Below, piece after piece: positions 12,717 to 55,643 of a DNA stretch of 64,000 bases. This DNA comes from an uncultured Candidatus Saccharibacteria bacterium (GTDB lineage Bacteria; Patescibacteriota; Minisyncoccia; Phycocordibacterales; UBA918). Numbering within the stretch: the stretch's first letter is position 1; each line of letters begins with the position of its first letter. The translations under genes were made by a program, and so were the position numbers. The notes beneath the pieces were generated by a model, which saw nothing but the letters and a program-made list of their open reading frames with translations, had not been told where the DNA came from and searched no databases. The stretch lies in NCBI GenBank assembly GCA_964608605.1, contig CAZSOS010000001.1:117888-181887 (forward strand). Reading direction: 5' to 3'.

Positions 12717-14132
<1,416 letters not shown>

Positions 14133-14253
14133 CCTCATCTGCTTTGTTGCGCTTCGGAAAATAGTGCTCGCTGGACTGTCTTTGTCTCACTCACATTATT
14201 TTCCTTGCGCGCCTCGCATCTGAGGCCATCTAACCCCTTCAATCAAATACACT

Positions 14254-14496
14254 ATGAAACTACTCAATCTAACCATTTCCCGCGTCGACATGCCGTTGTT
14301 CGACGGCCCCGTAGCCTTTGTGACCGTGCCCGGTCTGGCCGGGGAAATGACCATCATGGCCGATCATGCCGCCCTGATCTCGCCGCTTAAGGCCGGCACT
14401 ATCGTGATCAGGCGGGAAGACGGGGAAGATGAGAGTCTCCAGATCGAAACCGGAACCCTCGAGATCAGCCATAACCAGGCGACGATATTGGTCTAG
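14254..14496 (+). CDS. atpC: F0F1 ATP synthase subunit epsilon (short, beta-sandwich only)
   Basis: operon position, 80 aa beta-rich N-terminal domain; lacks C-terminal helical hairpin. Confidence 0.75.
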   Translation: MKLLNLTISRVDMPLFDGPVAFVTVPGLAGEMTIMADHAALISPLKAGTIVIRREDGEDESLQIETGTLEISHNQATILV

Positions 14497-14521
14497 GTCG
14501 GTTGGAAACAGGCTTCGTTAT

Positions 14522-14555
14522 CAACGCCGCCGCCCGTAGGGCGGCGGCGTTTTCG
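14522..14555. terminator. rho-independent terminator after atpC
   Basis: AACGCCGCCGCCCgtaGGGCGGCGGCGTTTTCGG. Confidence 0.75.
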
Positions 14556-14556
14556 G

Positions 14557-14562
14557 TATAAT
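14557..14562 (+). promoter_or_regulatory. -10 box TATAAT 8 nt upstream of giant-protein ATG
   Basis: ggTATAATaaaagggtATG. Confidence 0.45.
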
Positions 14563-14570
14563 AAAAGGGT

Positions 14571-17500
14571 ATGCACCAAAGACGCGCCGCGTTTATCGGC
14601 GGTCTCAGTCTTTTTCTGTTAGTGTTGGCGATCTGCTTCTGCGTTGGCTTTGTTTTTTCAGCGCGTCAGACACCTGAAGAGAACGCGGTGAGTTCCGGTG
14701 TAGAAAAGGCAGAGCCGGTCTCGTTCTCTCCTTGGCGGACTCTCTTCTGCGGTCTGCGCTCGCTTGTCCTTTGGCCTTGTGCTGAACCGACTTCTCTCCC
14801 AGAACCTTCTATGCCCGCTCCAACCACTTCCATTGAGACGCGGCCGGTTCCGGCAGTCGATCTAGATGTCGCTACCACCTCTGCTTCAACCACGTCTTCT
14901 TCACCCTCCACCCAATACATAACTAACGAAACCATAGTCCGCCCCCTCGAACGCGAAATCATCCGCGAAATCACCATCCGCGACCAGGCCGTCGACACTT
15001 CCCGTTTCGTCACCCGTACTGAATATGATAGGCAAGTAGACGCGCTTCTGCGGTCCATTGAGAGTAAAGGTGGTAGTACCACTATAGTGGATCAAGGTGG
15101 CGGTGGAGGAGGTCCTGAAACCGACCCTGTCTTCATCGCTTCCGCCGCTTTTACCATTACTGGTGGTGATCTTTCTGATTGGAATCAGGCTTTTGGATGG
15201 GGTGATCACACCCAGGCTGGTTATCTAACTTCGTTCACCGAAAATGACCCACTTTTCTCCTCGTCCACCGCCGCTTCCATCACCAATACGGATGTCTCAA
15301 ATTGGAACCAATCTTTTGCTTCTTCAAGCGTGCTATCTATATCAGTGTCTGGTCTCATGGCGTCGTCGAGCGCTTGGGACCAGGCTTTTGGGTGGGGCGA
15401 CCACTCCCAAGCCGGATACCTCACTTCGTTCACCGAACTCGACCCCATCTTCAGCACCTCACCGGCCTTCGGCATCAGCGGCACCAATATCAGCAATTGG
15501 AATAGTACGTACACCACCGTCACCGCCTCCTCTTCACAGTGGGGAAGCGCGTACACCTTGGCCACTCTCTTGAACTCCGCTTCCTCCACCTGGAACCAAG
15601 CCTACTCCTGGGGCGACCACTCCACGGAGAACTACATCCAACAGAACACCGACGCCACTCTCGACAACGCCACCACCACCAACCTCACCACCAACACACT
15701 CACGCTCTCTGGAGCGCTCAAGACTGGTCTCTCAGACGGTTGCGTTGAAGTAGCTGGCGGTGTCCTCACTTCTCTGGGAGTGGCATGTGGCACTGGCGGC
15801 GGGGGACTGACAAACCTCAATGGCCTCACCTCTTCCTCGCAATCTTTCGCCACTTCCACTTCCGGCGGTCTTTCTCTTAACATCACCTCATCGGGAGGGG
15901 TACATACGTTTTCTGTGGGACTGCAGGCTGGTCGGACCCTGCCGCTTACCGCTAGTACCACTGAGTGGGCCAACATCAGGAACCTGGTCAACGCCTCCTC
16001 TTCACAATGGGGAAGCGCGTACACCTTGGCCAATCTCCTCAACAGCGCCTCCTCCACCTGGAACGCCGCCCATGCCTCCACCACCGCCCTCACGCCCTCG
16101 TACCTCCGCGGACTCTTCAATGCCGGTACCGGCCTCTCGTACGGCACCACCACTGGCACCTTCACCAACACCGGCGTCCTGTCGATCGGAGGGCTGAGCG
16201 GGAGCGTGGCGACGAGTTCGTTGGGGCTTGGTAACAATAGCTTCATCGGATTGTCCGACACCCCAGGTTCATATAACGCCGATCGCGTCTTGTTCACCAA
16301 TGCTGCCGGCAACGCTTTGACCGACTCCGCCAACTTCACCTATAACGGCAGCTCCGAGTTGCTGACGATCAGTGGCAACCTCGCCACCGGCTACGGCATC
16401 TCTTTGGGGTCTTCCGGAGGCATATATGCCAGTGAAGATATCCTGACCGCGGGCAACGGCATCAATATCATCGGTACCGAACACGCGGTTTTAAGGACCG
16501 GTAACGCTTACGTCTCTCTCACTGATGATGGAATCGATACTTTTGCCAATATTGCTGGTGATGGTGTCCAGCTCTACTCCCATTTTGATGACATCACCCT
16601 TCATTCCACTAATAACATCATTCTCACCGGCATCGGCAACGTCGGTATCGGCACCACCACGCCATCGCACAAGCTGACGGTGGCAGGAAACACTCTTATT
16701 GCTGGGAATGCCACTACTACGGGCAACCTAGTGGTGCAAGGGGCGGACATCGTGCTGGGAAACACTGGCATGGGTTACATAAGTAGTGCTTCAGGTGGAG
16801 TCTTGATCCTGGGGGGCGCCTCTAACGGTACCGGTGAAAATCTACGTTTTGATTTTGATATCAGTACTGGTCTTGATTTAGATGTGGTAACAGTAAGTTC
16901 TGGCACCGGTGCTAATCATTTGTTATTCCTCATGGGCCTGGAGACGATGGGAAATCTTAAGGTCGGCGGCAATATCACCGATGCTACCTGGCAGGGAAAT
17001 GATATCGACATCTCCGACTACACCAACCTCGGCGTCACCGCCACTGGTCTTTCTCTTTCTGGAGATAACATCGCTCTGACTGCTGGCTATTCCATACCAC
17101 TCACCTCTTCCACCTCAGAATGGACCACAGCGTATTCCTGGGGCGACCACGCCACGCAAGGCTACTTGACCGGCCTCGGCACTTCCACCTTCAACGGCAA
17201 CATTTCGATGGCCGGACATATCATTCCGGCGGCCGACATCACCTACGATCTCGGTTCACCCACTAGCATGTGGCGGGACGTCTACATCGGTCCGGGTTCT
17301 CTCTATATCAATGGCAAGAAGGTGTTGGAGGACGTGTCGGATACCATTACGTTGCGTACCGATCACAACCAGAATCTCGCGGTGCAGACCAGCGGTATCG
17401 GCAGTATTCATGTCAATGCTTCATCCACCGGCGGCATCACCATGGAGTCCATCTCAGGTAATATCAACATCACCTCCGCCTCTGGCAACCTCAACATCGG

Positions 17501-20500
17501 CACCACCGGCAGCGGTCAGCTCAACCTCGGCACCATTAACCAAGGCGTCTGGCACGGCACCGACGTCGACATCTCCGACTACACCAACCTCACCGTCTCT
17601 GCCACCGGCCTCACTTTGAACAACGACGCCATAGAGCTTGCTTCCGGCTATGCTATTCCACTCACCGCCAGCACCACTGAATGGATGAGCGCTCGCACTG
17701 ACGTGCTCGCGCTCACGGCCTCCTCCACCCTTTGGGATTCTTTCTACAACACCCCTTCATCCCGCCTCACCGCCGGCACCGGTCTCTACTGGAGCGGCAA
17801 TACTCTAAACGCTTCGTCGTCGGCTGACATCAACTACTGGACGTTGTCGGGAGGCAATGTTTATAGGGCTTCCGGCAATGTGGGTATCGGGACTTCCACT
17901 CCCGCTGCTAAGCTGGATGTTCAAGGTAGCTGGTTGCGTCTCCTTAATCCAAGTGGGGGATCGAGCATAACCTCGCAAAGCGTAGGAGGGGAGGCTATTT
18001 TCGCGGCGCGCAATTCGGCCAACGCTTGGACCTCCGGTGTAAACACCAGCGGACAGTATTTTATCTACGACGAGACCAATGCCAGCATACCTTTCCGTAT
18101 CTATCCTAGTTCTGCGAACAGTGTCATGTCAATCAATGGTAGTAATGTTGGTATCGGCACTACGACTCCGAACTCTAAGCTTCACCTAGCCGATGGATAC
18201 ATGCTTGTAACGCGCTCAGAGACCGCTAGTCAACCTAACTTTTATCAAGCCTTGAACTCCAGCGGCAGCGGCTTCGGTCTTAGATATACCGAGGATGCTA
18301 TCGGAAACATCCCGGCAGATGCCTGGCAGTTCAGATTATCCGGAACCAACGTCAGCCCGCTCATCTTCTCAACTTTCGACTCGACTCCGATCCTGACCAT
18401 GGCGACTTCCGGCAATATTGGCATTGGTACTACGACGCCTAACGCGGCGTTGGACATCAGTTCCACAGCTACGGGGGCTGTCACGGCAGCCTTCTTTAGA
18501 TCGAACCCAGGTGGTGCTGGGGCGGCGAATCAAAATACGATTGTGCTCGATAACCTGCAGGGTTCCGCTAACTTCAAAAATTCCATCCGACTCGCCAGTA
18601 ACGGGGCTTTGAAGTGGTCATTCGGAAATGATTACTACGGCGCTGGAGAGCAGAATTTCTTCATACATGACGCGGTATCCAACGCGGCGCGTCTCTTGAT
18701 AGATCCGGACGGCAACGTCGGTATCGGGACCACCAGTCCAAACAGTATCTTGAATATCAACACCGGCCTCTCCGGTTTTATGGGCCTTCCCGCACACGGC
18801 AGTGTAGGCTTCGGTAATTTCAGTTCTGGTAATACGGCACCTAGCATGATGGCCCGCTCGGATAATTCGACGGCCCTCCGTCTAATTAGCTTAGCAAGCA
18901 ATAGCAACACTGACGCCGACATGAACTTCGATGTCCGTGAGAACGACAACACCGACTTCGCCACCTTGACCAGTCAAGCGTTCAGCTTCAGCCGTTTTGG
19001 CAATAGCCTACTCACTATCCTACGCAGCGGCAACGTTGGCATCGGTACCTCGACGCCCAGTGCGAAGCTTAGTGTACAAGGCACCATTCGGGCAGAGAGT
19101 GTCTCATCCATTAGTACAGGGTCTGGCGTTGAAATCAACTACAACACCGGCACCGGACTCGGTAAGATCCAAGCCTATGATCGAGACGCAAGTACTTTTA
19201 AGGACTTGTGGCTAGATGGCTCTACGCTCACTCTCGCTACTGGCGGTGCTTCTCGCGTGACCATCCTTCCTTCTTCAGGAAATGTCGGTATAGGAACCAC
19301 TACTCCTCAAGCTACACTTCATCTCGGCACTTACGGCGCCACCCTCCGCCTCAATAGCCCAATAACTGGTTCTGGCATATACGGATACAATGACGCTAGT
19401 GGCGGTTTAGCTTACTCCTTCACGCGTCAATCCAACGACCTTCATATCACCGGCGCGACCGGCATCGGGTTCCAGTCTAACGCAGGTTCAGGCATAAATA
19501 CTGCTAGCACCTCGATGTATATCTCTTCCGCCGGCAACGTGGGCATCGGCACTACAACCCCAGCGAGCAGATTAAGCGTGTTTTCAACTGACAGCGTTAT
19601 CGCGGAATTCACCGCTTCGTCATCGGCAGCTACTCGAATGAAGCTAAATACCACAGGTTCCAATAAAAACGTGGGACTTAGTCTGGCAATAGACGGCATT
19701 ACTCGATGGACCAACGCCGCCTATCTCCCGAACGGGACTAACTATGACTACACGATATGGAATGACGCACTTAATAGTCCAGCCCTCCTCATTGACGGTG
19801 ACACGAACAACATCGGTATCGGCACCCTTAGTCCTGCATACAAACTCCATCTGGCCTCCGGCACGACGACGTTGGCCATGGTACCGTGGCAATCGGATGA
19901 TCTGGTAATACAAGGAGGTCTGGCAGAACAGAACGGCATCTCCATAGTCAACGGCTCCAATAAATACCTCACCTTCGTTGATGACAACATCGGCATCGGC
20001 CAGATCGGCTATTACTGGAACGGCAACATGAACTTCCTCACCGACGGCACGGAGCGAATGGTTATTAATGCCACCGGCAACGTCGGCATCGGGACCACAT
20101 CACCACTTACGAAACTCGACGTGAAGGGCTCGATCTTGATCGATCAAGGATCGAACGGACGTCTCATATTCAATAATTATACTTCTTTGTCAGATCATGG
20201 ACCATATATCGGCTACTCTACAGGTAACAATTCCATGGACATCGTGTCCGGAATGAACCCCAATGCCAATGGCGTTGGCACGGGTGGTATCCGCTTCGGT
20301 CGAGCCAGCGGTTCGTCGTGGGCCACGACCATGGTCATCGACGGCTCCGGATTGGTCGGTATAGGTACCTCAACACCTACACACAGTCTCACCGTAGGCG
20401 CGGTCAATTCGACCGTTGATCGGATTATCCGGGTCGTATCGCAAAATAACGTTGGCCTTATCCTTGAAGCCGATACGGATAATCTTACCGAGACACATAA

Positions 20501-21470
20501 CCCGTACGTGAAGATGTCGCAAGACGGTGGGGCGGTGGCTAGTATCATGGGTATGACCGGTGGTGCCAACATCGATCCTGAGGGTAATACCTTCACCGGC
20601 GGACACGATAATGCCCTGGTCTTGATCAACCAGTATGCCGGTTCAATACAGTTGGGTACTAACGGAGCTCCCCGGCTCTCTATCGTTTCTTCGGGTAATG
20701 TCGGCATCGGCGCCTTGTCTCCCTCCGCCCAACTCCACACCACCGGCACCGTCCGTTTCGCCAATTTCGGCGCCGGCACCCTCCAGACCGACGCCTCCGG
20801 CAACCTCTCAGTCTCCTCAGACACCCGTCTTAAAGACCTCGAAGGTACCTTCGACCGCGGACTCGAAGCCATCTTAGGCATAGAACCCATCATGTACCGC
20901 TGGAACGCCGCTTCCGGCTACGACCGTTCTACTCTATACGCCGGCTTCTCCGCCCAGAACGTGGAAGACTTCATCCCCGAAGCCGTGGGTACCAACCCTG
21001 ACGGTTTCCTCTCGTTGTCTGATAGACCGCTCCTGGCGGCGGTGATCAACGCGGTGAAGGAGATATACGGCCAATTGACGACTTTGTCCGATAAGATCGC
21101 TGGCTTTGCCGACAGCTTTATGTCCGCCAGCATCACCGCCACCGACAGGATCTGCGTGGGAGACACATGCGTTACCGAAGGTGAGTTGAAGGCCGTGTTG
21201 GATATGGTCGGTAGCAATGGTGGAGGCTCTAACGATGGAAATGGCAGCTGGGGCGGATCTTCCGGCGGCGGCGACACCACGACCGGTACTTCGACCGCCT
21301 CCACCACGCCGCCGGTTACCTCGACCTCGACACCGCCCGCCACTCCCGTATTAGGCTGTATGGACCCTCTGGCTTCGAACTTTGCTCCCGCGGCCACGGA
21401 GGATGATGGTTCGTGCGTATTTCCGCCCGCGCCGCCGGACGAGTCGGCCACCACCACTCCGGCGGAGTGA
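14571..21470 (+). CDS. giant secreted/surface repeat protein (2299 aa): N-terminal TM/signal, Pro/Thr-rich linker, tandem repeat modules, ~12 GNVGIGTTTP-type repeats, C-terminal phage tailspike-like intramolecular chaperone (peptidase S74-like) domain and Cys motif tail
   Basis: uninterrupted ORF; internal repeats visible at protein level; SSDTRLKDLEG...IMYRWNAASGYDRSTLYAGFSAQNVEDFIPEAV motif near C-terminus. Confidence 0.85.
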   Translation: MHQRRAAFIGGLSLFLLVLAICFCVGFVFSARQTPEENAVSSGVEKAEPVSFSPWRTLFCGLRSLVLWPCAEPTSLPEPSMPAPTTSIETRPVPAVDLDVATTSASTTSSSPSTQYITNETIVRPLEREIIREITIRDQAVDTSRFVTRTEYDRQVDALLRSIESKGGSTTIVDQGGGGGGPETDPVFIASAAFTITGGDLSDWNQAFGWGDHTQAGYLTSFTENDPLFSSSTAASITNTDVSNWNQSFASSSVLSISVSGLMASSSAWDQAFGWGDHSQAGYLTSFTELDPIFSTSPAFGISGTNISNWNSTYTTVTASSSQWGSAYTLATLLNSASSTWNQAYSWGDHSTENYIQQNTDATLDNATTTNLTTNTLTLSGALKTGLSDGCVEVAGGVLTSLGVACGTGGGGLTNLNGLTSSSQSFATSTSGGLSLNITSSGGVHTFSVGLQAGRTLPLTASTTEWANIRNLVNASSSQWGSAYTLANLLNSASSTWNAAHASTTALTPSYLRGLFNAGTGLSYGTTTGTFTNTGVLSIGGLSGSVATSSLGLGNNSFIGLSDTPGSYNADRVLFTNAAGNALTDSANFTYNGSSELLTISGNLATGYGISLGSSGGIYASEDILTAGNGINIIGTEHAVLRTGNAYVSLTDDGIDTFANIAGDGVQLYSHFDDITLHSTNNIILTGIGNVGIGTTTPSHKLTVAGNTLIAGNATTTGNLVVQGADIVLGNTGMGYISSASGGVLILGGASNGTGENLRFDFDISTGLDLDVVTVSSGTGANHLLFLMGLETMGNLKVGGNITDATWQGNDIDISDYTNLGVTATGLSLSGDNIALTAGYSIPLTSSTSEWTTAYSWGDHATQGYLTGLGTSTFNGNISMAGHIIPAADITYDLGSPTSMWRDVYIGPGSLYINGKKVLEDVSDTITLRTDHNQNLAVQTSGIGSIHVNASSTGGITMESISGNINITSASGNLNIGTTGSGQLNLGTINQGVWHGTDVDISDYTNLTVSATGLTLNNDAIELASGYAIPLTASTTEWMSARTDVLALTASSTLWDSFYNTPSSRLTAGTGLYWSGNTLNASSSADINYWTLSGGNVYRASGNVGIGTSTPAAKLDVQGSWLRLLNPSGGSSITSQSVGGEAIFAARNSANAWTSGVNTSGQYFIYDETNASIPFRIYPSSANSVMSINGSNVGIGTTTPNSKLHLADGYMLVTRSETASQPNFYQALNSSGSGFGLRYTEDAIGNIPADAWQFRLSGTNVSPLIFSTFDSTPILTMATSGNIGIGTTTPNAALDISSTATGAVTAAFFRSNPGGAGAANQNTIVLDNLQGSANFKNSIRLASNGALKWSFGNDYYGAGEQNFFIHDAVSNAARLLIDPDGNVGIGTTSPNSILNINTGLSGFMGLPAHGSVGFGNFSSGNTAPSMMARSDNSTALRLISLASNSNTDADMNFDVRENDNTDFATLTSQAFSFSRFGNSLLTILRSGNVGIGTSTPSAKLSVQGTIRAESVSSISTGSGVEINYNTGTGLGKIQAYDRDASTFKDLWLDGSTLTLATGGASRVTILPSSGNVGIGTTTPQATLHLGTYGATLRLNSPITGSGIYGYNDASGGLAYSFTRQSNDLHITGATGIGFQSNAGSGINTASTSMYISSAGNVGIGTTTPASRLSVFSTDSVIAEFTASSSAATRMKLNTTGSNKNVGLSLAIDGITRWTNAAYLPNGTNYDYTIWNDALNSPALLIDGDTNNIGIGTLSPAYKLHLASGTTTLAMVPWQSDDLVIQGGLAEQNGISIVNGSNKYLTFVDDNIGIGQIGYYWNGNMNFLTDGTERMVINATGNVGIGTTSPLTKLDVKGSILIDQGSNGRLIFNNYTSLSDHGPYIGYSTGNNSMDIVSGMNPNANGVGTGGIRFGRASGSSWATTMVIDGSGLVGIGTSTPTHSLTVGAVNSTVDRIIRVVSQNNVGLILEADTDNLTETHNPYVKMSQDGGAVASIMGMTGGANIDPEGNTFTGGHDNALVLINQYAGSIQLGTNGAPRLSIVSSGNVGIGALSPSAQLHTTGTVRFANFGAGTLQTDASGNLSVSSDTRLKDLEGTFDRGLEAILGIEPIMYRWNAASGYDRSTLYAGFSAQNVEDFIPEAVGTNPDGFLSLSDRPLLAAVINAVKEIYGQLTTLSDKIAGFADSFMSASITATDRICVGDTCVTEGELKAVLDMVGSNGGGSNDGNGSWGGSSGGGDTTTGTSTASTTPPVTSTSTPPATPVLGCMDPLASNFAPAATEDDGSCVFPPAPPDESATTTPAE

Positions 21471-21532
21471 TGTGGACAACCGCCTCAGGACCGCCACTAT
21501 AGGCGTTATCATGATCGTATAACCAATAAAAT

Positions 21533-22039
21533 ATGGAAATCGCATATATCATCAGCATGATCGTCATGTCCTTCGCGGTATCGCTGGGCGTGGGATGTTC
21601 GACTGTCGCCGTCACTCAGTTCTTCGCGGCCATCAAGGACGGCGGCATCAATGAGGCCGAGCGGAAGATGTTGGGCGTGGTGTACTTCCTGCTTAGGGTG
21701 GCCATGGCTGGCATCTTGCTTACCATGATCGCCCAGGGAGCGATCGTCTATTACATCTCCGGCAACTTCCTCTTTATCTCGCCGTTCTTCATGGCTCTGT
21801 ACACCGTGGTGGGCGTGTTGTTCCTCAACGCCATCGGTATGACCTGGCGCTTGATACCGAGCTCGCTCGGACCGGCCATTCAGGCCTCGAGCTGGTATTC
21901 GCTCGGCTTCCTCATGGCCCTGGTGCCGCTTGGGCTCACGGCCTTCACCTACACGCAGTTCCTGCTCGTATACGCCGGCGTTATGCTGATCACCATCGCC
22001 GCTCTCAATATATTGATGGGGTATCTAAGAAAGGACTAG
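21533..22039 (+). CDS. hypothetical membrane protein (168 aa, 4-5 TM)
   Basis: hydrophobic ORF directly downstream of giant protein. Confidence 0.55.
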   Translation: MEIAYIISMIVMSFAVSLGVGCSTVAVTQFFAAIKDGGINEAERKMLGVVYFLLRVAMAGILLTMIAQGAIVYYISGNFLFISPFFMALYTVVGVLFLNAIGMTWRLIPSSLGPAIQASSWYSLGFLMALVPLGLTAFTYTQFLLVYAGVMLITIAALNILMGYLRKD

Positions 22040-22050
22040 GGAAAGGATAG

Positions 22051-22086
22051 AAAAAGCGGCGGGGCCAGAGGCCCCGCCGCTTTTTA
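22051..22086. terminator. bidirectional terminator between convergent genes
   Basis: AAAAAGCGGCGGGGCCagagGCCCCGCCGCTTTTT. Confidence 0.8.
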
Positions 22087-31397: not shown

Positions 31398-34214
31398 ATG
31401 CATAAAAAGTTCGATCATCAGGCCATAGAGAAGAAATGGCAGGAAAAATGGCGGGAGAGCGACCTCTATCGGACCGATGGCGATTCCGCCAAGGAGAAGG
31501 TCTACGTGCTCGACATGTTCCCGTATCCATCCGGCGAAGGCCTCCATGTCGGACACCCGAAGGGCTACATCGCCACCGACGTCTACTCACGTTTTAAAAA
31601 GATGAGCGGCTTCGAAGTGCTGCACCCGATGGGTTGGGACGCTTTCGGCCTGCCGGCGGAGAACTTCGCCATCAAACACAAAGTGCATCCGCGAGTAGCG
31701 GTGGAGAAGAACATCGCCAATTTCAAGGAGCAGCTGGCGCATCTGGGCTTCAATTACGATTGGTCGAGGGAGATCAACACCACCGATCCCGAATACTACA
31801 AGTGGACGCAGTGGATCTTCCTGAAGCTCTTGGAGAAAGGTCTGGCCTACGAGTCGCGCGAGCCGATCAACTGGTGTCCTGGCTGTCAGACGGGCCTGGC
31901 CAATGAGGACCTTGAAAGCGACGGTACTTGCGAGCGCTGCGGCTCGGTCGTCGAGAAACGGCCGATGCGCCAGTGGGTCTTGAAGATCACCGCCTATGCC
32001 GATCGGATGCTCGAAGATCTGGAGACGCTGACCGCCTGGCCCGAACACATCAAAGAAGCGCAACGCAACTGGATCGGCCGTAGCGAAGGCGCCGAGATCG
32101 ACTTCAAACTTACCAGCGGCGAGACCGTTACTGTTTTCACAACCCGGCCGGATACGCTCTTTGGCGCTACCTACCTGGTGCTAGCGCCCGAGCATGAATT
32201 GGTTGCTAGATTAGCGATCGAAAACAAAGACGAAGTGGCGGGGTACGTGCGAGCGACCGCCGAAAAGACCGAGATCGATCGCACCAACGCCGAGAAGGAA
32301 AAGACCGGCGTGGAATTAAAAGGCGTCAAGGCGATAAATCCAGGGAATGGCGAAGAAATTCCGGTCTTTATCGCCGACTATGTCCTCTCTCACTACGGCA
32401 CCGGTGCCATCATGGCCGTCCCGGCGCACGATGAGCGTGACGGCGCATTCGCGCGGAAGTTCGGTTTGCCGATTAAAGTGGTGATCGCACACGAATACGT
32501 CAACATCAAAGAAGGAGTAGAGACATTGGAGCGTGGTGATGTCGTCGATCTCATCATTGAGCACCCCACGAACGGTACCTTTTTGTTGCAACGTGAGAAA
32601 GATGAACATGGGCCAGATCATGTTCACTTTGTAGGCGGCGGTACGGAAGGGGAGTCGCATGAGGACGCCATTGCCAAAGAGTTAGTCGAAGAAACTGGTT
32701 TCCAGAATTTTGAGATCATTGGCACGCCAGTAAACGTGACCAACGCCTTCGCGTATCGGCACAATAAGAACAAGAATCAAAAAACCAGAAGTCACTTCTA
32801 CTATATAAAGCTGAAAAATCTGGACCAGATCCCTTCTGAGATCGAGGAAGGTAAACACACGATCGAGTGGGTATCGAAAGAACAGCTGGACAAGCTGATC
32901 ACTTGGGACGCGCACAGGGCCGCCTGGAATAATTTTATTGGCAAGGAATATCTGACCAAGAGTGGGATGCTGGTCTTTTCAGACGAGTTTTCTGGTATGG
33001 ATTCTGAAGAGGCCAAGAAATCTATTGTGGAGAAGGTGGGCGGACGGATGACGAATACCTACCGTTTAAATGACTGGGTGTTCTCACGCCAGCGGTATTG
33101 GGGCGAGCCCATTCCGGTGATTCACTGCTCCAATTGCGGCGTGGTGCCGGTTCCCTATGACCAACTGCCGGTGAAGCTGCCTGAAGTGGAACATTACGAG
33201 CCGACCGGTACGGGAGAGTCGCCGCTGGCGGCTATCGACGACTGGGTCAATGTGGACTGCCCGAAGTGCGGCGGCCCGGCCAAGCGCGAGACCAATACTA
33301 TGCCGCAATGGGCCGGTTCTTCGTGGTATTACCTCCGCTTCATCGATCCGAAGAACGACCAGGATTTGATAGACCCGGAGAAGGAAAAGAAATGGGCGCC
33401 GGTGGACGTCTACGTGGGCGGCGACCACGCCGTCAGGCACCTGATCTACGCTCGCTTCTGGCATAAATTCCTCTACGATCTGGGCGTGGTTTCCACCATC
33501 GAGCCTTTCATGCGGTTGGAGTTCCTGGGCTTCATCCTGGCCGAGGATGGACGCAAGATGTCCAAGCGCTGGGGCAATATCATCAATCCGGACGATATCG
33601 TGAAGCAGAATGGCGCGGACGCTTTGCGCGTCTACGAGATGTTCATGGGTCCGTTCGAGAACACGGTGGCCTGGAGCACCAATGGCCTTGTGGGAGCGCA
33701 ACGTTTTGTCGAGAGAGTGAACGGTCTTTCCGAGGACATCACGGAAGCTGAACCAGCCGAGACCTCGCGGCTGCTGCATAAGACTATCAAGAAGGTGCGC
33801 GATGACATCGAATCGTTCAAATTCAACACGGCGGTGAGCGCCATGATGATCTTCGTGAACGCGGCGGAAAAGAGCGGACTATCTCAGGGATCATACGAGA
33901 CCTTCCTGAAGCTCTTGGCACCCTTCGCGCCGCATCTTTGCGAGGAGCTGTGGGAGGCGGCCGGACACGGGACGTCGATCCATCTGGAAGAATATCCGAG
34001 CTTCGATGCCGCTTTGGCTAAGGACGATCTGGTGACCATCGGCGTGCAGATAAACGGCAAAGCCCGCGGATCCATCACCATCGCGCCGGAGGCGGATGAA
34101 GCGGCCGCGATCGCCGCCGCCAAGGAGGAACCCGGCTTGGCGAAGTATCTGGAAGCGGGGGAGTTGAAGAAGGTGGTCTATGTTCCGGGTCGCATCCTGA
34201 ACCTGATCGTCTGA
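31398..34214 (+). CDS. leuS: leucine--tRNA ligase with an embedded Nudix hydrolase domain (aa ~364-518)
   Basis: class I HVGHP (HIGH) and KMSKR motifs, editing-domain TTRPDT..HDERD; insert contains Nudix box GGGTEGESHEDAIAKELVEETGF. Confidence 0.95.
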   Translation: MHKKFDHQAIEKKWQEKWRESDLYRTDGDSAKEKVYVLDMFPYPSGEGLHVGHPKGYIATDVYSRFKKMSGFEVLHPMGWDAFGLPAENFAIKHKVHPRVAVEKNIANFKEQLAHLGFNYDWSREINTTDPEYYKWTQWIFLKLLEKGLAYESREPINWCPGCQTGLANEDLESDGTCERCGSVVEKRPMRQWVLKITAYADRMLEDLETLTAWPEHIKEAQRNWIGRSEGAEIDFKLTSGETVTVFTTRPDTLFGATYLVLAPEHELVARLAIENKDEVAGYVRATAEKTEIDRTNAEKEKTGVELKGVKAINPGNGEEIPVFIADYVLSHYGTGAIMAVPAHDERDGAFARKFGLPIKVVIAHEYVNIKEGVETLERGDVVDLIIEHPTNGTFLLQREKDEHGPDHVHFVGGGTEGESHEDAIAKELVEETGFQNFEIIGTPVNVTNAFAYRHNKNKNQKTRSHFYYIKLKNLDQIPSEIEEGKHTIEWVSKEQLDKLITWDAHRAAWNNFIGKEYLTKSGMLVFSDEFSGMDSEEAKKSIVEKVGGRMTNTYRLNDWVFSRQRYWGEPIPVIHCSNCGVVPVPYDQLPVKLPEVEHYEPTGTGESPLAAIDDWVNVDCPKCGGPAKRETNTMPQWAGSSWYYLRFIDPKNDQDLIDPEKEKKWAPVDVYVGGDHAVRHLIYARFWHKFLYDLGVVSTIEPFMRLEFLGFILAEDGRKMSKRWGNIINPDDIVKQNGADALRVYEMFMGPFENTVAWSTNGLVGAQRFVERVNGLSEDITEAEPAETSRLLHKTIKKVRDDIESFKFNTAVSAMMIFVNAAEKSGLSQGSYETFLKLLAPFAPHLCEELWEAAGHGTSIHLEEYPSFDAALAKDDLVTIGVQINGKARGSITIAPEADEAAAIAAAKEEPGLAKYLEAGELKKVVYVPGRILNLIV

Positions 34215-47902: not shown

Positions 47903-47945
47903 ACAAAGAGCGCGGGGCCGAAGGCCCCGCGCTCTTTGTTCAAAA
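47902..47945. terminator. rho-independent terminator after alaS
   Basis: AAAGAGCGCGGGGCCgaaGGCCCCGCGCTCTTT. Confidence 0.8.
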
Positions 47946-47986
47946 CTCGCTTCGTGTTTTCGCCATCACCCCGCTATAATAGGGGC

Positions 47987-49093
47987 ATGTTTTTCGCGGG
48001 TGCCAAAAGGAAGGCGGCCGATGACCTCGGCGTGCTGCTTGATATCGAGAGTAACGGCGTCACCATAGCCATAGCGCTCTCAGGCGAGCAAAGCGGCCAG
48101 CTCCGCGTCCTTTGGTCCTACAAGGAGGAAGTGCCCGTCACCGATCCGGGCCTGCTCGAGCGTCGGCTGTTCGTGGCCATATTGAACGCCTTTACCGAAC
48201 TAGGCAGCCAAGGCCTGCCGAGCTTGCGCAAAGAGGGCCGTTTCGACCTGCCGTCATTGGTGCAAGTATCGATGGCGGCGCCCTTTGCCTATACGGTCGG
48301 TCGCAACGTCTCCCTGAAGGACGAAAAGCCCTTCCGGATCACCCGCAAACTGGTCAAAGAACTGGAAAAAAAGGCTATCGACGAAGTGCGGGCTCAGGCG
48401 GAGAGCGAGCTGTTCTCCAAGAATCTCAAGCTGGCCGTACTATCGGACTCGACTGCCGCCCTTAGCGTCAACGGCTATCCAACCTACTTTCCTTTTCGGA
48501 GCACGGCCAGGGAGATCACGCTTTGCCAAGTGGTGGCCATCGGCCAGAGCGACATAGTGGAGCACGTCAAACGGTGTCAGGAGAAGATCCTGCCCGAAGC
48601 CAAGATCGACATCGACTCTTTCATGTCTTTGTATCTGCGAACGGTGACGGAGCTGGCACCGAAGGCCGATGACATGTGTCTGGTGGCGGTGGGTGACCAC
48701 GTGACCGAACTGCTGACCCAGCGTGACGGGTTGCCGCAAAGCTCCGTCTTCATGCCTTTTGGCGACGCCGATCAGGCACCGCGAGGAGGGAGTGCCAAGA
48801 CGGATTACCAAAGCGAGCTGGCTAAGCTCTTCGCGCGGAACAACGACGGATTGTCGCTCCCTAAGAATGTCTATCTGTTGTCCGACAAAGAGGTCGGGCA
48901 CTCCATCGCTCGGATCGCCCAAGCCGCCTCCAGGGAGGCCACGGGGACGCATCACCAGATATTCTCGGTGGCGGCCGCGTTCTTCAGCCGGCTCAACATA
49001 CAAGATGCGCGGCTCTGTTGTTTGGTTTTCGCGTACGGCCGCAAGCTGTATGAGGATCGGCATCTGACCGAATTAGAGGATATGATAAAATAG
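47987..49093 (+). CDS. hypothetical protein, possibly actin-fold (PilM/FtsA-like) ATPase
   Basis: LGVLLDIESNGVTIAIAL N-terminal motif reminiscent of PilM/FtsA phosphate-1; leaderless after TATAAT 47975-47980. Confidence 0.4.
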   Translation: MFFAGAKRKAADDLGVLLDIESNGVTIAIALSGEQSGQLRVLWSYKEEVPVTDPGLLERRLFVAILNAFTELGSQGLPSLRKEGRFDLPSLVQVSMAAPFAYTVGRNVSLKDEKPFRITRKLVKELEKKAIDEVRAQAESELFSKNLKLAVLSDSTAALSVNGYPTYFPFRSTAREITLCQVVAIGQSDIVEHVKRCQEKILPEAKIDIDSFMSLYLRTVTELAPKADDMCLVAVGDHVTELLTQRDGLPQSSVFMPFGDADQAPRGGSAKTDYQSELAKLFARNNDGLSLPKNVYLLSDKEVGHSIARIAQAASREATGTHHQIFSVAAAFFSRLNIQDARLCCLVFAYGRKLYEDRHLTELEDMIK

Positions 49094-49100
49094 TTCGCAT

Positions 49101-50390
49101 ATGGATAAGAAGTGGAATCTGCAGGACATTAAACCGTCTGAAAAAAGACGGACGACCTTAAGACCCTCGCCGCGGCAGGCGGAGCGGAGGAGCGAAGAGT
49201 CGCCCACTGTTTCCGAAGCTGGCGAAGCCAAAAGACGCCCGGCCGCGAGGAAAGAGCGTCGAGGATCGAAGAAAGGGATCGCGTTGGCCGCACTAGCGGT
49301 GGTCTTACTGGCTTTCGGCGGCGTTCTTTTCTCGGCTCTGACCAGCAAGACCGTCGTGACTGTCTTCCCGCGCTGGCGCGAACCGACTGTGAACGCCGTC
49401 TTCGAGGCGAAAAGGGACGCGTCCGGTACCGAGTTGGCCTATGAGATCATGTCTCTAGAGGCCCAGGGAGACCGTGAGGTGACGGCCACCGGACAGGAAG
49501 AGGTGGAGGAACAGGCCACCGGACGAGTTACCATCTATAACACCTCCAACGCCTCCCAACGGCTTATCACCAACACCCGTTTCGAGAGCGCTGGCGGACT
49601 CATATTCAGGATCAAGGATTCGGCCGTCGTACCGCCGGCGGCCGGCGGTACTCCTGGTTCCATCTCCGTGGAGGTATTCGCCGATCAGGCTGGACCGGAG
49701 TATAACCTCCCGGCCAACACCCGTTTCACCGCTCCCGGACTTAAAGGGTCGGACCTTTATGAATCGATCTATGCCGAGAATCCCGCGGCCATATCCGGAG
49801 GTCATCGCGGCCCTAAGTTCATCATCGATAACGCCGAACTGGAATCGGCCACGGCCTCCTTGCGTTCGGAGCTGCAGCAGGCCTTGGCCGGACGAGTAGC
49901 TTCGGAGAAGCCGGCCGGCTTCGCTACCTTCGACGCGGCCATCCGATACGCCTTCGAGGCTCTACCAGCCGAGGACCTCGGAAACGGCAAGGTCAAGATC
50001 CGGGAGAAGGTGACCTTACAGCTGCCGATGTTCAAGAACGAGGATTTCGCCTCCTTCATCGCTGCCGCCACCGTGCCCGGCTACGAAGGGGAGCCGGTGC
50101 GGATCGAGAATCTCTCGGTCTTCACCTTCGAATATGCTGGCGAACCCGATCTTTCGGCCGGAGAGCCCATCACCTTCAAATTGCTAGGTCGACCCAAGGT
50201 CATCTGGGCCTATGACGCCGAGCAGCTGAAGCGTGATTTGGCCGGAGGCGCCCAAACCGCCCTCAACACCGTGCTGGGTGGCTATCCGGCCATCGAAAAG
50301 GCCAATGCCACCATAAAACCCTTCTGGCGGAGGTCCTTCCCGGAGGATCCGGCCGGTATTACCGTGGTCGAAAGCCTTACGACCGAATAA
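49101..50390 (+). CDS. hypothetical membrane-anchored protein, Arg/Lys-rich N-terminus
   Basis: ORF with one TM helix and large extracytoplasmic region. Confidence 0.5.
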   Translation: MDKKWNLQDIKPSEKRRTTLRPSPRQAERRSEESPTVSEAGEAKRRPAARKERRGSKKGIALAALAVVLLAFGGVLFSALTSKTVVTVFPRWREPTVNAVFEAKRDASGTELAYEIMSLEAQGDREVTATGQEEVEEQATGRVTIYNTSNASQRLITNTRFESAGGLIFRIKDSAVVPPAAGGTPGSISVEVFADQAGPEYNLPANTRFTAPGLKGSDLYESIYAENPAAISGGHRGPKFIIDNAELESATASLRSELQQALAGRVASEKPAGFATFDAAIRYAFEALPAEDLGNGKVKIREKVTLQLPMFKNEDFASFIAAATVPGYEGEPVRIENLSVFTFEYAGEPDLSAGEPITFKLLGRPKVIWAYDAEQLKRDLAGGAQTALNTVLGGYPAIEKANATIKPFWRRSFPEDPAGITVVESLTTE

Positions 50391-55094: not shown

Positions 55095-55643
55095 ATGGAG
55101 GAAAGAGATGATATAGACATGGAGATGACGGAAGCGGAAGAAGCCCCCATCGAAGACACTGAATTGGAAGAGGAAGAGGCCATGTCGAAGGACAAGCTGA
55201 AGCGACTGAGAGACAAACTGAAACGAGCCGAGGAGGAGAAGATGACCGCGCTTGAAGACCTCGCTCGGGCCAGGGCCGACTTCCTCAACGCTCGTCGCCG
55301 GATGGACGAAGAAAGGATATCCGACCGGGAGCGTACCAAATTAGGATTCGTGGAGGATCTGCTGCCGCTTTGCGACAGTTTCACCATGGCCCTCAAGGAC
55401 GCGGCTTTCGAGGCTTTGCCGGACCATCTCAAGAAAGGCATCCTCGGCATCAACATGCAGCTTTCTTCCATACTTAAAGGCTATGGAGTTGAGGAGTTCG
55501 GAAGCGTCGGCGACGAGTTCGATCCGAACCTCCACGAAGCCTTGGCGAACGACGGTGACGGACTGGTCTTGAAGGAGATCGTACAGAAAGGGTACAAAGC
55601 TGGAGAGAAGGTGATCCGTCCGGCCAAAGTCATCGTCAGCTGA
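55095..55643 (+). CDS. grpE: nucleotide exchange factor GrpE
   Basis: acidic N-terminus, long helix, C-terminal GYKAGEKVIRPAKVIVS beta domain. Confidence 0.85.
   Translation: MEERDDIDMEMTEAEEAPIEDTELEEEEAMSKDKLKRLRDKLKRAEEEKMTALEDLARARADFLNARRRMDEERISDRERTKLGFVEDLLPLCDSFTMALKDAAFEALPDHLKKGILGINMQLSSILKGYGVEEFGSVGDEFDPNLHEALANDGDGLVLKEIVQKGYKAGEKVIRPAKVIVS

Follow-up and report, generated by a model that had tools for sequence, protein, structure and literature searches.

Why should a bacterium from the radiation of candidate phyla (CPR) carry, just behind its atp operon, a gene for a protein built like a phage tail fibre? The question is raised by a giant gene in the window, the 64,000-nucleotide stretch of contig CAZSOS010000001.1 (positions 117,888 to 181,887) that was analysed here. 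The gene occupies 14571-21470 on the plus strand, stop codon included, and is a complete open reading frame (ORF) of 2299 amino acids (236.6 kDa, pI 4.5). The intact ORF described in an earlier note on this DNA, made from the letters alone, was confirmed: the frame runs without interruption, and a 100% identical product is present in a public assembly, on a 331,920-bp NCBI contig. We consider it fairly probable that the protein is a giant, N-terminally membrane-anchored, homotrimeric surface fibre used for attachment to a cell or host, of the type of phage tail fibres and of the fibres known in Bdellovibrio bacteriovorus as mosaic adhesive trimers (MAT; Caulton et al., 2024; PMC10769870). The trimerisation, cleavage, topology, fibre length and attachment role in this reading are what we infer from the features described below. 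Among S74-terminated phage-like and MAT-like fibres the protein is a variant with a rare membrane-proximal base module and predicted anchoring by a transmembrane (TM) segment; it introduces no new principle.

Shaft modules and the S74 chaperone domain

A degenerate DNA pattern for the peptide G-I-G-[TA]-x-x-P matched 12 times, in every case on the plus strand, in the reading frame and within the gene (16644-20722), compared with a chance expectation of 0.18; 0 of 100 shuffles reached 12. These copies have the protein consensus I-x-S-S-G-N-V-G-I-G-T-T-T-P-x-A-K-L-x-V-x-G, in which G, I, G, P and L do not vary. The earlier note had counted about 12 dispersed repeats, and the number stands. The copies are not irregular, however: 11 of the 12 are evenly spaced, 83-115 aa apart (mean 94, standard deviation 9.5), and they bound ten tandem modules of ~94 aa (aa 1100-2039; 17868-20687, plus strand), each of which opens with a GNVGIGTTTPxxKL motif. 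The array is followed by the last capping motif and a distal tip strand (aa 2040-2082; 20688-20816, plus strand), the predicted C-terminus of the mature fibre after cleavage, and the tip segment 'TTGTVRFANFGAGTLQTD' is highly conserved across homologs.

When a profile of the ten modules was compared with all PDB sequences, five entries only were matched, all of them Bdellovibrio MAT fibres: Bd2133 (8OND, E 2.4e-22), Bd3182 (8OJN, E 3.5e-17), Bd1334 (8OML, E 8e-13) and, more weakly, 8ON4 (also Bd1334, E 1.5e-5) and Bd2439 (8OL4, E 1.5e-4). A PDB search with the single sequence matched Bd3182 at E 2e-5 over exactly one module. Bd3182 (8ONC, 8OJN and 8ONB) is an example of the S74 subgroup of MATs; structures are also on record for Bd2133 (8OND), Bd1334 (8OML) and Bd2439 (8OL4). 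The MAT shaft is a trimeric beta-helix, in which the same motif builds capping loops (R656-H669 and F752-H765 in Bd3182; PMC10769870). By sequence, the ten modules are homologous to MAT-type trimeric beta-helix modules, with a trimeric state predicted, and the beta-helical fibre repeats suggested earlier are borne out by a profile that matches these structures exclusively.

The array leads into a Peptidase_S74 chaperone/autoprotease domain (aa 2083-~2185) and a Cys-pair module (aa 2186-2217), together at 20817-21221 on the plus strand, the assignment being based on Pfam and on invariant S, D and K residues. Peptidase_S74 (PF13884) is the only Pfam family found in the protein; it matches aa 2083-2139 with E 4.3e-7 and 30.6 bits (cut-off 22), over profile positions 1-57 of 58. 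At the start of the domain lies the dyad motif S2083-D-T-R-L-K2088 (S-D-x-x-x-K), with S2083 the predicted nucleophile and K2088 the predicted base, and the S, D and K, as well as a downstream GFxAQ, are invariant in an alignment of 15 homologs. The AlphaFold2 (AF2) model is confident over the S74 part (predicted local distance difference test score (pLDDT) 83-94 at aa ~2087-2177). Its top Foldseek match is the intramolecular chaperone auto-processing (ICA) domain of MyRF (7DC3; probability 1.0, E 2e-4, template modelling score 0.59-0.64 when normalised to the target), with weaker matches to the Bd2133 fibre, chaperone-bearing T5 pb1 (4UW8), the chaperone of the K1F endosialidase (3GW6) and 3GUD. 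In both sequence and fold, this domain belongs to the S74/ICA family. The earlier note had named a match to Peptidase_S74 or to fibre domains as the check on its proposal, and such matches were obtained from Pfam and from tail-fibre PHROGs (E ~1e-26).

The phage-type chaperone domain named in the note is present, but it is not the end of the protein, since the Cys module and a further 82 residues follow. A conserved Cys-pair hairpin, 'ICVGDTCVTEGELKAVL', comes after the chaperone helix and is common to many Patescibacteria homologs. Beyond it extends a low-complexity Gly/Ser/Thr/Pro tail (aa 2218-2299, 82 aa; 21222-21467, plus strand) that contains the Cys-pair motif 'GCMDPLASNFAPAATEDDGSC'. 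The tail Cys pair, 'GC(M/T)D..A.N(F/Y)......EDDGSC' at 21354-21425 (aa 2262-2285), also occurs near the C-termini of the proteins P0185 and P0193 and has no Pfam match. By calculation, the predicted cleavage before S2083 would take off a 22.1-kDa fragment and leave a chain of 214.5 kDa.

Since the S74 domain was first described on endosialidases and tailspikes, and Pfam names the family 'Chaperone of endosialidase', the protein might be a tailspike-like enzyme, that is, a surface-anchored polysaccharide depolymerase or glycosidase acting on host capsule, extracellular polysaccharide or cell wall, in which S74 would play the part known from endosialidases. We think this improbable. Neither Pfam (E <= 1) nor sequence searches of the PDB revealed a catalytic domain, the modules match the shaft of MAT fibres, which is non-enzymatic, and ten modules of ~94 aa resemble a shaft as opposed to a single large catalytic beta-helix.

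The predicted N-terminal anchor and the start of the gene

The protein has a single hydrophobic segment, at aa ~4-34 (Kyte-Doolittle values up to 2.76), within which a TM signal-anchor is predicted at aa 7-31 (14589-14663, plus strand) with an N-in/C-out orientation. The basic sequence 'MHQRRA' lies on its N-terminal side and acidic residues lie on its C-terminal side; no AxA cleavage motif was found at the N-terminal segment. These features suggest a signal-anchor that stays uncleaved, not a signal for secretion. The hydrophobic anchor or signal noted earlier is therefore present, but a membrane-anchored protein with a predicted extracellular chain fits better than the secreted protein it was taken for.

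A juxtamembrane Cys pair (C60 and C70, in 'FC...W.C') and a linker follow at 14664-14915 (plus strand). The linker (aa 71-115) is 58% Pro/Ser/Thr, in agreement with the earlier description, and presumably serves as a spacer through the cell wall. Next comes what we term the base module, a membrane-proximal segment (aa 116-175) with the pattern YITNE..REIIREI.IRD..D.S.FVTR.EYD.QVDALLRSIE and a Gly hinge behind it (14916-15125, plus strand). This part of the protein is rare: a search of 1.84 billion representative proteins with the first 185 residues returned only 17 relatives, 7 of them at E <= 1e-10. The module sits near the N-terminus in all 17 of these proteins, and C60 is invariant among those aligned.

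Between the base module and the array lies a proximal fibre shaft (aa 186-1099; 15126-17867, plus strand) composed of repeat blocks common to Patescibacteria homologs. Its first part (aa 186-360) carries 'WNxAxxWGDHxxxGYLT' repeats, and the tail-fibre family phrog_9729 matches aa 183-243. The remainder (aa 361-1099) consists of blocks shared with other Patescibacteria giants. The proximal shaft further contains duplicated 'DIDISDYTNL...IPLTASTTEW' blocks, a 'YDLGSPTSMWRDVYIG' block, a conserved block with a Cys pair (C391, C406) and, at aa 688-706, the first capping motif. Over the mid-fibre region, aa 355-700, the homologous segments form a mosaic of short repeats.

P0001, the sole product in public records, begins at M263 and has 2037 aa. 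This raises the possibility that the long ORF is not expressed as such, either because translation starts at M263 or because the ORF is a decaying pseudogene or an assembly artefact. We regard any of these as extremely unlikely. The frame is open from 14571, directly behind a terminator and a TATAAT hexamer. The residues upstream of M263 (aa 1-262) hold the base module along with the TM segment and the Cys pair, all conserved across 17 independent proteins, and a WGDH repeat copy at aa 186-232 is homologous to the copy that spans M263. Because the region before M263 is conserved in homologs and a WGDH copy runs across M263 itself, the comparative evidence supports the long start at 14571 as the real one. 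The public call of this gene probably lacks 262 codons, and with them the TM anchor, the linker and the conserved base module. A collapse of the repeats in the assembly, which the earlier note had raised together with an interrupted ORF as grounds for doubt, is unlikely because the repeat copies have diverged at the DNA level (62-89% identity); given, in addition, the identical product in an independent public assembly, it was rejected.

Genomic setting and relatives

The C-terminal half of the protein is, by sequence, homologous to genuine phage tail fibres. The tail-fibre PHROGs 9942, 9729 and 18345 match at E 1e-24 to 1e-26, and tblastn found matches in 48 phage records (best E 6e-25). The 'chaperone of endosialidase' of Synechococcus phage S-CRES2 is 25.7% identical over aa 1100-2152 (E 6e-25), and tail fibres of cyanophages, pelagiphages and roseophages and the fibre of Thermus phage phiFa align as well, spanning aa 1100-2176 with 24-28% identity. 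The N-terminal half is common to Patescibacteria proteins, not to the phage matches.

Given this homology, which includes the S74 end, and the tail-fibre PHROG matches, the gene might encode a virion tail fibre of a prophage or prophage remnant, a tailocin or a contractile injection system, to be built onto a particle and not the cell. A weakly baseplate-J-like ORF 28 kb from the gene (49101-50390) could be counted in favour of this idea, but its match is below the Pfam cut-off and solitary. We consider such a particle fibre very unlikely. Capsid, tail, terminase and integrase genes were found nowhere in the 64-kb window, the rest of which is occupied by housekeeping genes (UvrC, Ddl, leucyl- and alanyl-tRNA synthetases (LeuRS, AlaRS), YceG, signal peptidase, MnmA, RpsD, RpoA and GrpE-DnaK-DnaJ). 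The codon usage of the giant gene is host-like, correlating at 0.80 with that of the pooled housekeeping genes (which themselves range from 0.55 to 0.95), the GC content at third codon positions is 0.62 as against 0.56-0.81 in housekeeping genes, and the overall GC content is not foreign. The protein has the shaft and the chaperone domain of a virion fibre, but the gene does not lie in a phage structural module (its neighbours are the atp operon, a membrane protein ORF and AcrB/HlyD), and where an N-terminal baseplate-attachment domain without an export signal would be expected there is a TM signal-anchor. In several genomes, relatives are found in conserved synteny with housekeeping genes, and they begin with a signal peptide or a TM segment.

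On the strength of the housekeeping context, the host-like codon usage, the TM anchor and the relatives in housekeeping synteny, the gene is a resident cellular gene and not a prophage remnant. A prophage origin, tried as a candidate, was rejected on gene context, codon usage and the TM anchor. What remains of the phage-origin adhesin proposed earlier is the homology with phage fibres, and the adhesin part follows from architecture and analogy. 'Phage origin' in this sense denotes that homology only.

The baseplate-like ORF deserves description in its own right. It encodes 429 aa on the plus strand and stands isolated between AlaRS and the rpsM/K/D-rpoA block. It matches Baseplate_J (PF04865) at a sub-threshold level (E 6e-4, 19.6 bits versus a cut-off of 21.1) and phrog_6, 'baseplate wedge subunit', at E 1.2e-6. 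No other phage-tail genes surround it, and the preceding ORF of 385 aa (47936-49093) has no family match. As a further compositional feature, the GC skew is negative (-0.07 to -0.12) over 14001-22000, which includes the giant gene, and positive over most of the window; the negative values arise because C exceeds G at third codon positions (0.44 versus 0.18) in this gene, which is rich in Thr, Ser, Gly and Ala.

Upstream of the giant gene are atpB, atpA, atpG, atpD and atpC, in that order. The last of these, encoding ATP synthase epsilon (14254-14496, plus strand), specifies only 80 aa, comprising the N-terminal beta-sandwich domain without the C-terminal helical domain. As the earlier note stated, the giant gene follows the intrinsic terminator of this operon (14528-14556, plus strand), a GC hairpin at 14528-14549 with 7 GC pairs and then a T-run (TTTT). 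Immediately behind it is a candidate -10 element, a perfect TATAAT hexamer at 14557-14562 on the plus strand, 8 nt 5´ of the ATG. A -10-like hexamer starts 12-15 nt 5´ of the start codon at no fewer than 10 (>=10) of the 47 window genes, and Shine-Dalgarno motifs are rare among the 47 gene starts, which suggests that leaderless mRNAs are widespread in this genome. Leaderless or near-leaderless expression of the giant gene would fit this habit and is plausible. The grpE gene at 55095, with TTGACA-17-TATAAT, provides an example of a -10-like hexamer close to a start.

On the downstream side, an ORF of 168 aa (21533-22039, plus strand), predicted to be a polytopic membrane protein and without a Pfam or PHROG match, is possibly co-transcribed with the fibre gene; no terminator was found between the two. 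A strong bidirectional terminator at 22051-22085 (16-bp stem with 11 GC pairs) closes the unit, and beyond it AcrB/HlyD lie on the opposite strand. The 168-aa ORF was considered as a conserved partner of the fibre and rejected, since it has no similarity to the 176-aa gene located 3´ of the homolog P0008 (L046), the sole one compared; at the remaining homolog loci the genes that follow are different.

A scan of species-representative genomes (GTDB) with a profile made from the C-terminal alignment of 5 sequences detected 41 related loci, mostly in Patescibacteria, with a minority in Bacteroidota and other phyla; the GTDB representatives exclude the window's own genome. Among homologs of the giant protein, those with names belong to Doudnabacteria, Parcubacteria, Minisyncoccia and the 'Patescibacteria group', and one relative bears the automatic NCBI name 'tail fiber domain-containing protein'. 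The related loci L005 and L010 come from C7867 genomes of an earlier study (PMC4508563). The 17 base-module relatives range from 168 to 3133 aa, the smallest apparently complete one having 462 aa. In the complete ones, a TM segment and the base module lead into a fibre whose length varies, and this runs into an S74 or S74-like end, followed by the Cys module and an acidic tail; ten of the 17 were inspected at the sequence level, and these ten share the same CPR-type layout. Nearly all complete relatives open with a signal peptide or a TM segment, neither of which is needed by virion fibres.

Several relatives are embedded in conserved surroundings. For P0004, P0005 and P0019, the order Obg-GatB-small helix-turn-helix (HTH) protein-giant recurs in three genomes, on contigs of 111-371 kb, and P0008 is placed among housekeeping genes. 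The small HTH proteins directly 5´ of the giant genes are at L042:9104-9862, L043:9106-9948 and L045:2647-3567; no counterpart was found in the 64-kb window. A 1723-aa S74 fibre homolog, P0017 (L044:8001-13172), is flanked by fusA (EF-G) and tuf (EF-Tu), where the ribosomal-protein S10 cluster of an NCBI metagenome-assembled genome (MAG) begins. In many Patescibacteria homologs, P0004, P0005, P0008, P0019 and P0037 among them, a cytoplasmic HTH_17-like domain (E 1e-6 to 3e-4) precedes the TM segment, which agrees with the N-in/C-out orientation predicted for the window protein; the domain is absent from the window protein. A DNA-binding domain joined across the membrane to an extracellular fibre is unusual.

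One Patescibacteria MAG, JAZKFG01, has at least five S74 fibre loci (L009, L017, L019, L020 and L022). Its four complete paralogs (740-837 aa) have a signal peptide, a conserved N-terminal domain of ~170 aa and an S74 end, with a hypervariable middle. This pattern of conserved ends and variable middle suggests, at the level of sequence comparison, a MAT-like mosaic logic and diversifying ligand recognition.

The affiliation of the window's bacterium was read from LeuRS, whose best named matches are from Candidatus Kaiserbacteria, Parcubacteria and Paceibacterota; by this marker the lineage is a Kaiserbacteria/Parcubacteria-type member of the Patescibacteria (CPR). The synthetase itself (31398-34214, plus strand; 938 aa) carries, behind its editing domain, an inserted NUDIX domain (aa 383-504). 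The insertion is common to many LeuRS homologs of 935-965 aa, and ~785-aa versions from Kaiserbacteria/Parcubacteria are without it.

The proposed fibre and comparison with known systems

Apart from the type IV pili known in Saccharibacteria, host finding and attachment in CPR bacteria are largely obscure, and cultures are lacking for most lineages, Kaiserbacteria among them. The bacterium of the window has a tiny genome and probably depends on a host. For such a cell, the features above can be assembled into a coherent scheme. The protein would probably be expressed from a leaderless mRNA and inserted into the membrane through the single signal-anchor (aa 7-31), N-in/C-out, with the Cys pair, the Pro/Ser/Thr linker and the base module (aa 116-175) holding the fibre at the envelope. 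The S74 domain would nucleate and check trimerisation and template the folding of the beta-helical shaft, then cleave itself before S2083 by means of the S2083/K2088 dyad, releasing the 22-kDa fragment and leaving a trimer of 214.5-kDa chains. The mature trimer would be tethered by three N-terminal helices, and its new C-terminal tip, the last beta-helix module (aa ~1925-2082), would point away from the cell and bind a surface ligand on another cell, most likely a glycan (or else a protein). Scaling the ~0.7 A per residue of Bd3182 to the 2051 extracellular residues gives a rough predicted length of ~100-150 nm.

An adhesin function is what we infer by analogy, and earlier reports are in line with an attachment role: Parcubacteria carry unique beta-rich repeat proteins of >1500 aa that are 'indicative of adhesins' (PMC4508563), and surface proteins predicted as adhesins are essential in a Saccharibacterium (PMC11665869). 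The fibre could instead be a non-adhesive appendage, such as a protective or shaping 'fur' or spacer layer, a phage decoy, or a fibre for self-recognition or aggregation among siblings. An anchor with a very long shaft and without an identifiable binding tip specifies no ligand, the protein is strongly acidic, and it is single-copy in the window, all of which would suit such a role. We nevertheless find it unlikely, given that every characterised relative with this combination of modules and S74 domain is a binding device (phage receptor-binding proteins (RBPs) and MAT fibres) and that the conserved ends and variable middle in the related MAG suggest diversifying ligand recognition.

Several observations count against the membrane-anchored adhesive fibre that we favour. 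Pfam finds S74 only, and no lectin, TNF-like or other receptor-binding tip domain is recognisable. The beta-helix part of the AF2 single-chain model of aa 1928-2242 has pLDDT < 50, although a poor model is what would be expected from single-chain modelling of an obligate trimer, and the model of the base region (aa 40-221) has a mean pLDDT of only 49.8, with a helix at aa ~149-167 as its sole element. The N-terminal segment might yet be removed as a signal peptide, in which case some other means of keeping the protein on the cell would be required. A MAT-like logic would give the genome several paralogs, and the 64-kb window shows one copy. Finally, the -10 hexamer stands alone: no -35 element was found for the giant gene, and a consensus promoter scan did not call the TATAAT. 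Of the leaderless promoter claimed in the earlier note, the hexamer and its spacing, a geometry that recurs in the window, survive; a complete promoter does not.

A broader proposal is that Parcubacteria-type CPR bacteria recognise their hosts mainly with S74 giant fibres as organelles, which would correspond to phage RBPs but be borne by a cell, anchored directly in the cytoplasmic membrane by a lineage-specific base, setting the host range and swapping modules and tips with phages, and that the HTH_17 homologs double as one-component transmembrane sensors coupling host contact to gene regulation. We put this forward as a possible but doubtful extension. More immediately, a cell-encoded, phage-like trimeric fibre with a predicted self-cleaving chaperone would be a concrete candidate for an attachment or host-range determinant in CPR bacteria, and the processed tip might be usable as a probe for the CPR host or its glycans. 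In the open-access literature, we found no paper on S74-terminated, intramolecular-chaperone or tail-fibre-like proteins in Patescibacteria/CPR.

Among systems that have been characterised, long repetitive surface fibres are also formed by the trimeric autotransporter adhesins YadA and AtaA and by SiiE and MpIBP, all of which serve attachment. Unlike these, the window protein has a different repeat fold and no C-terminal beta-barrel translocator, RTX/type I secretion signal or LPxTG, and, unlike trimeric autotransporters, it is predicted to be anchored by its N-terminus in the cytoplasmic membrane. A YadA-type C-terminal beta-barrel had no Pfam match at E <= 1; with neither a barrel nor a C-terminal LPxTG, anchoring by sortase or in the manner of trimeric autotransporter adhesins was ruled out. 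MyRF (7DC3) is likewise a membrane protein with an S74/ICA domain, which it uses for trimerisation-dependent self-cleavage, and it contains the capping-loop motif as well (PMC10769870). In contrast to the window protein, MyRF is a eukaryotic transcription factor whose ICA domain is cytoplasmic and precedes the TM segment, so that cleavage frees the DNA-binding part; the S74 domain described here is C-terminal and predicted to be extracellular, and there is no DNA-binding domain.

With the S74 fibres of phages (T5 pb1, 4UW8; K1F endosialidase, 3GW6; GA-1 neck appendage, 3GUD; S-CRES2), the window protein would share an attached N-terminus and a C-terminal tip freed by S74 autocleavage, and with cyanophage and pelagiphage fibres it shares a module array and S74 domain that are homologous over aa 1100-2176. 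It differs from them in being much longer, in lying outside any phage genome or prophage and in having a membrane anchor where they have a domain for virion attachment.

The closest parallel is provided by the MAT fibres, which are displayed on the predator surface; 13 of 21 have an S74 domain with SDxxxK at the end, Bd3182 cleaves itself at S782, and the full-length Bd3182 fibre measures ~550 A (PMC10769870). As with MATs, the fibre is encoded by the cell and not by a phage and is predicted to be exported, the beta-helix modules are delimited by the V-G-x-G/N-T-x-x-P-x-x-x-L capping-loop motif, and, as in the S74 subgroup, the C-terminal part is an S74 domain with SDxxxK. Bdellovibrio lives off other bacteria or attached to them, as the window's bacterium probably does as well. 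A mosaic multi-paralog family, another MAT trait, was seen in the Patescibacteria MAG of relatives; the 64-kb window shows one copy. Surface display has been shown for MATs and cleavage for Bd3182, and both are predicted for the window fibre. There are differences in construction, too: the window protein has 2299 aa as opposed to ~600-1100 aa, ten tandem modules, and an extra Cys module and low-complexity tail after S74. MAT proteins have a cleaved signal peptide and a conserved beta-rich N-terminal domain of ~130 aa, in contrast, as far as the descriptions go, to the N-terminal TM segment and rare lineage-specific base module here; the window protein is probably without the MAT N-terminal domain. 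The lineage that encodes it is a monoderm-like CPR bacterium and Bdellovibrio a diderm predator. Collectively, these comparisons would extend the phage-fibre architecture known in cellular predators from the Bdellovibrio MATs to a second, unrelated host-dependent lineage, and the different anchoring solution suggests that phages and bacteria living on other bacteria have exchanged fibre modules repeatedly.

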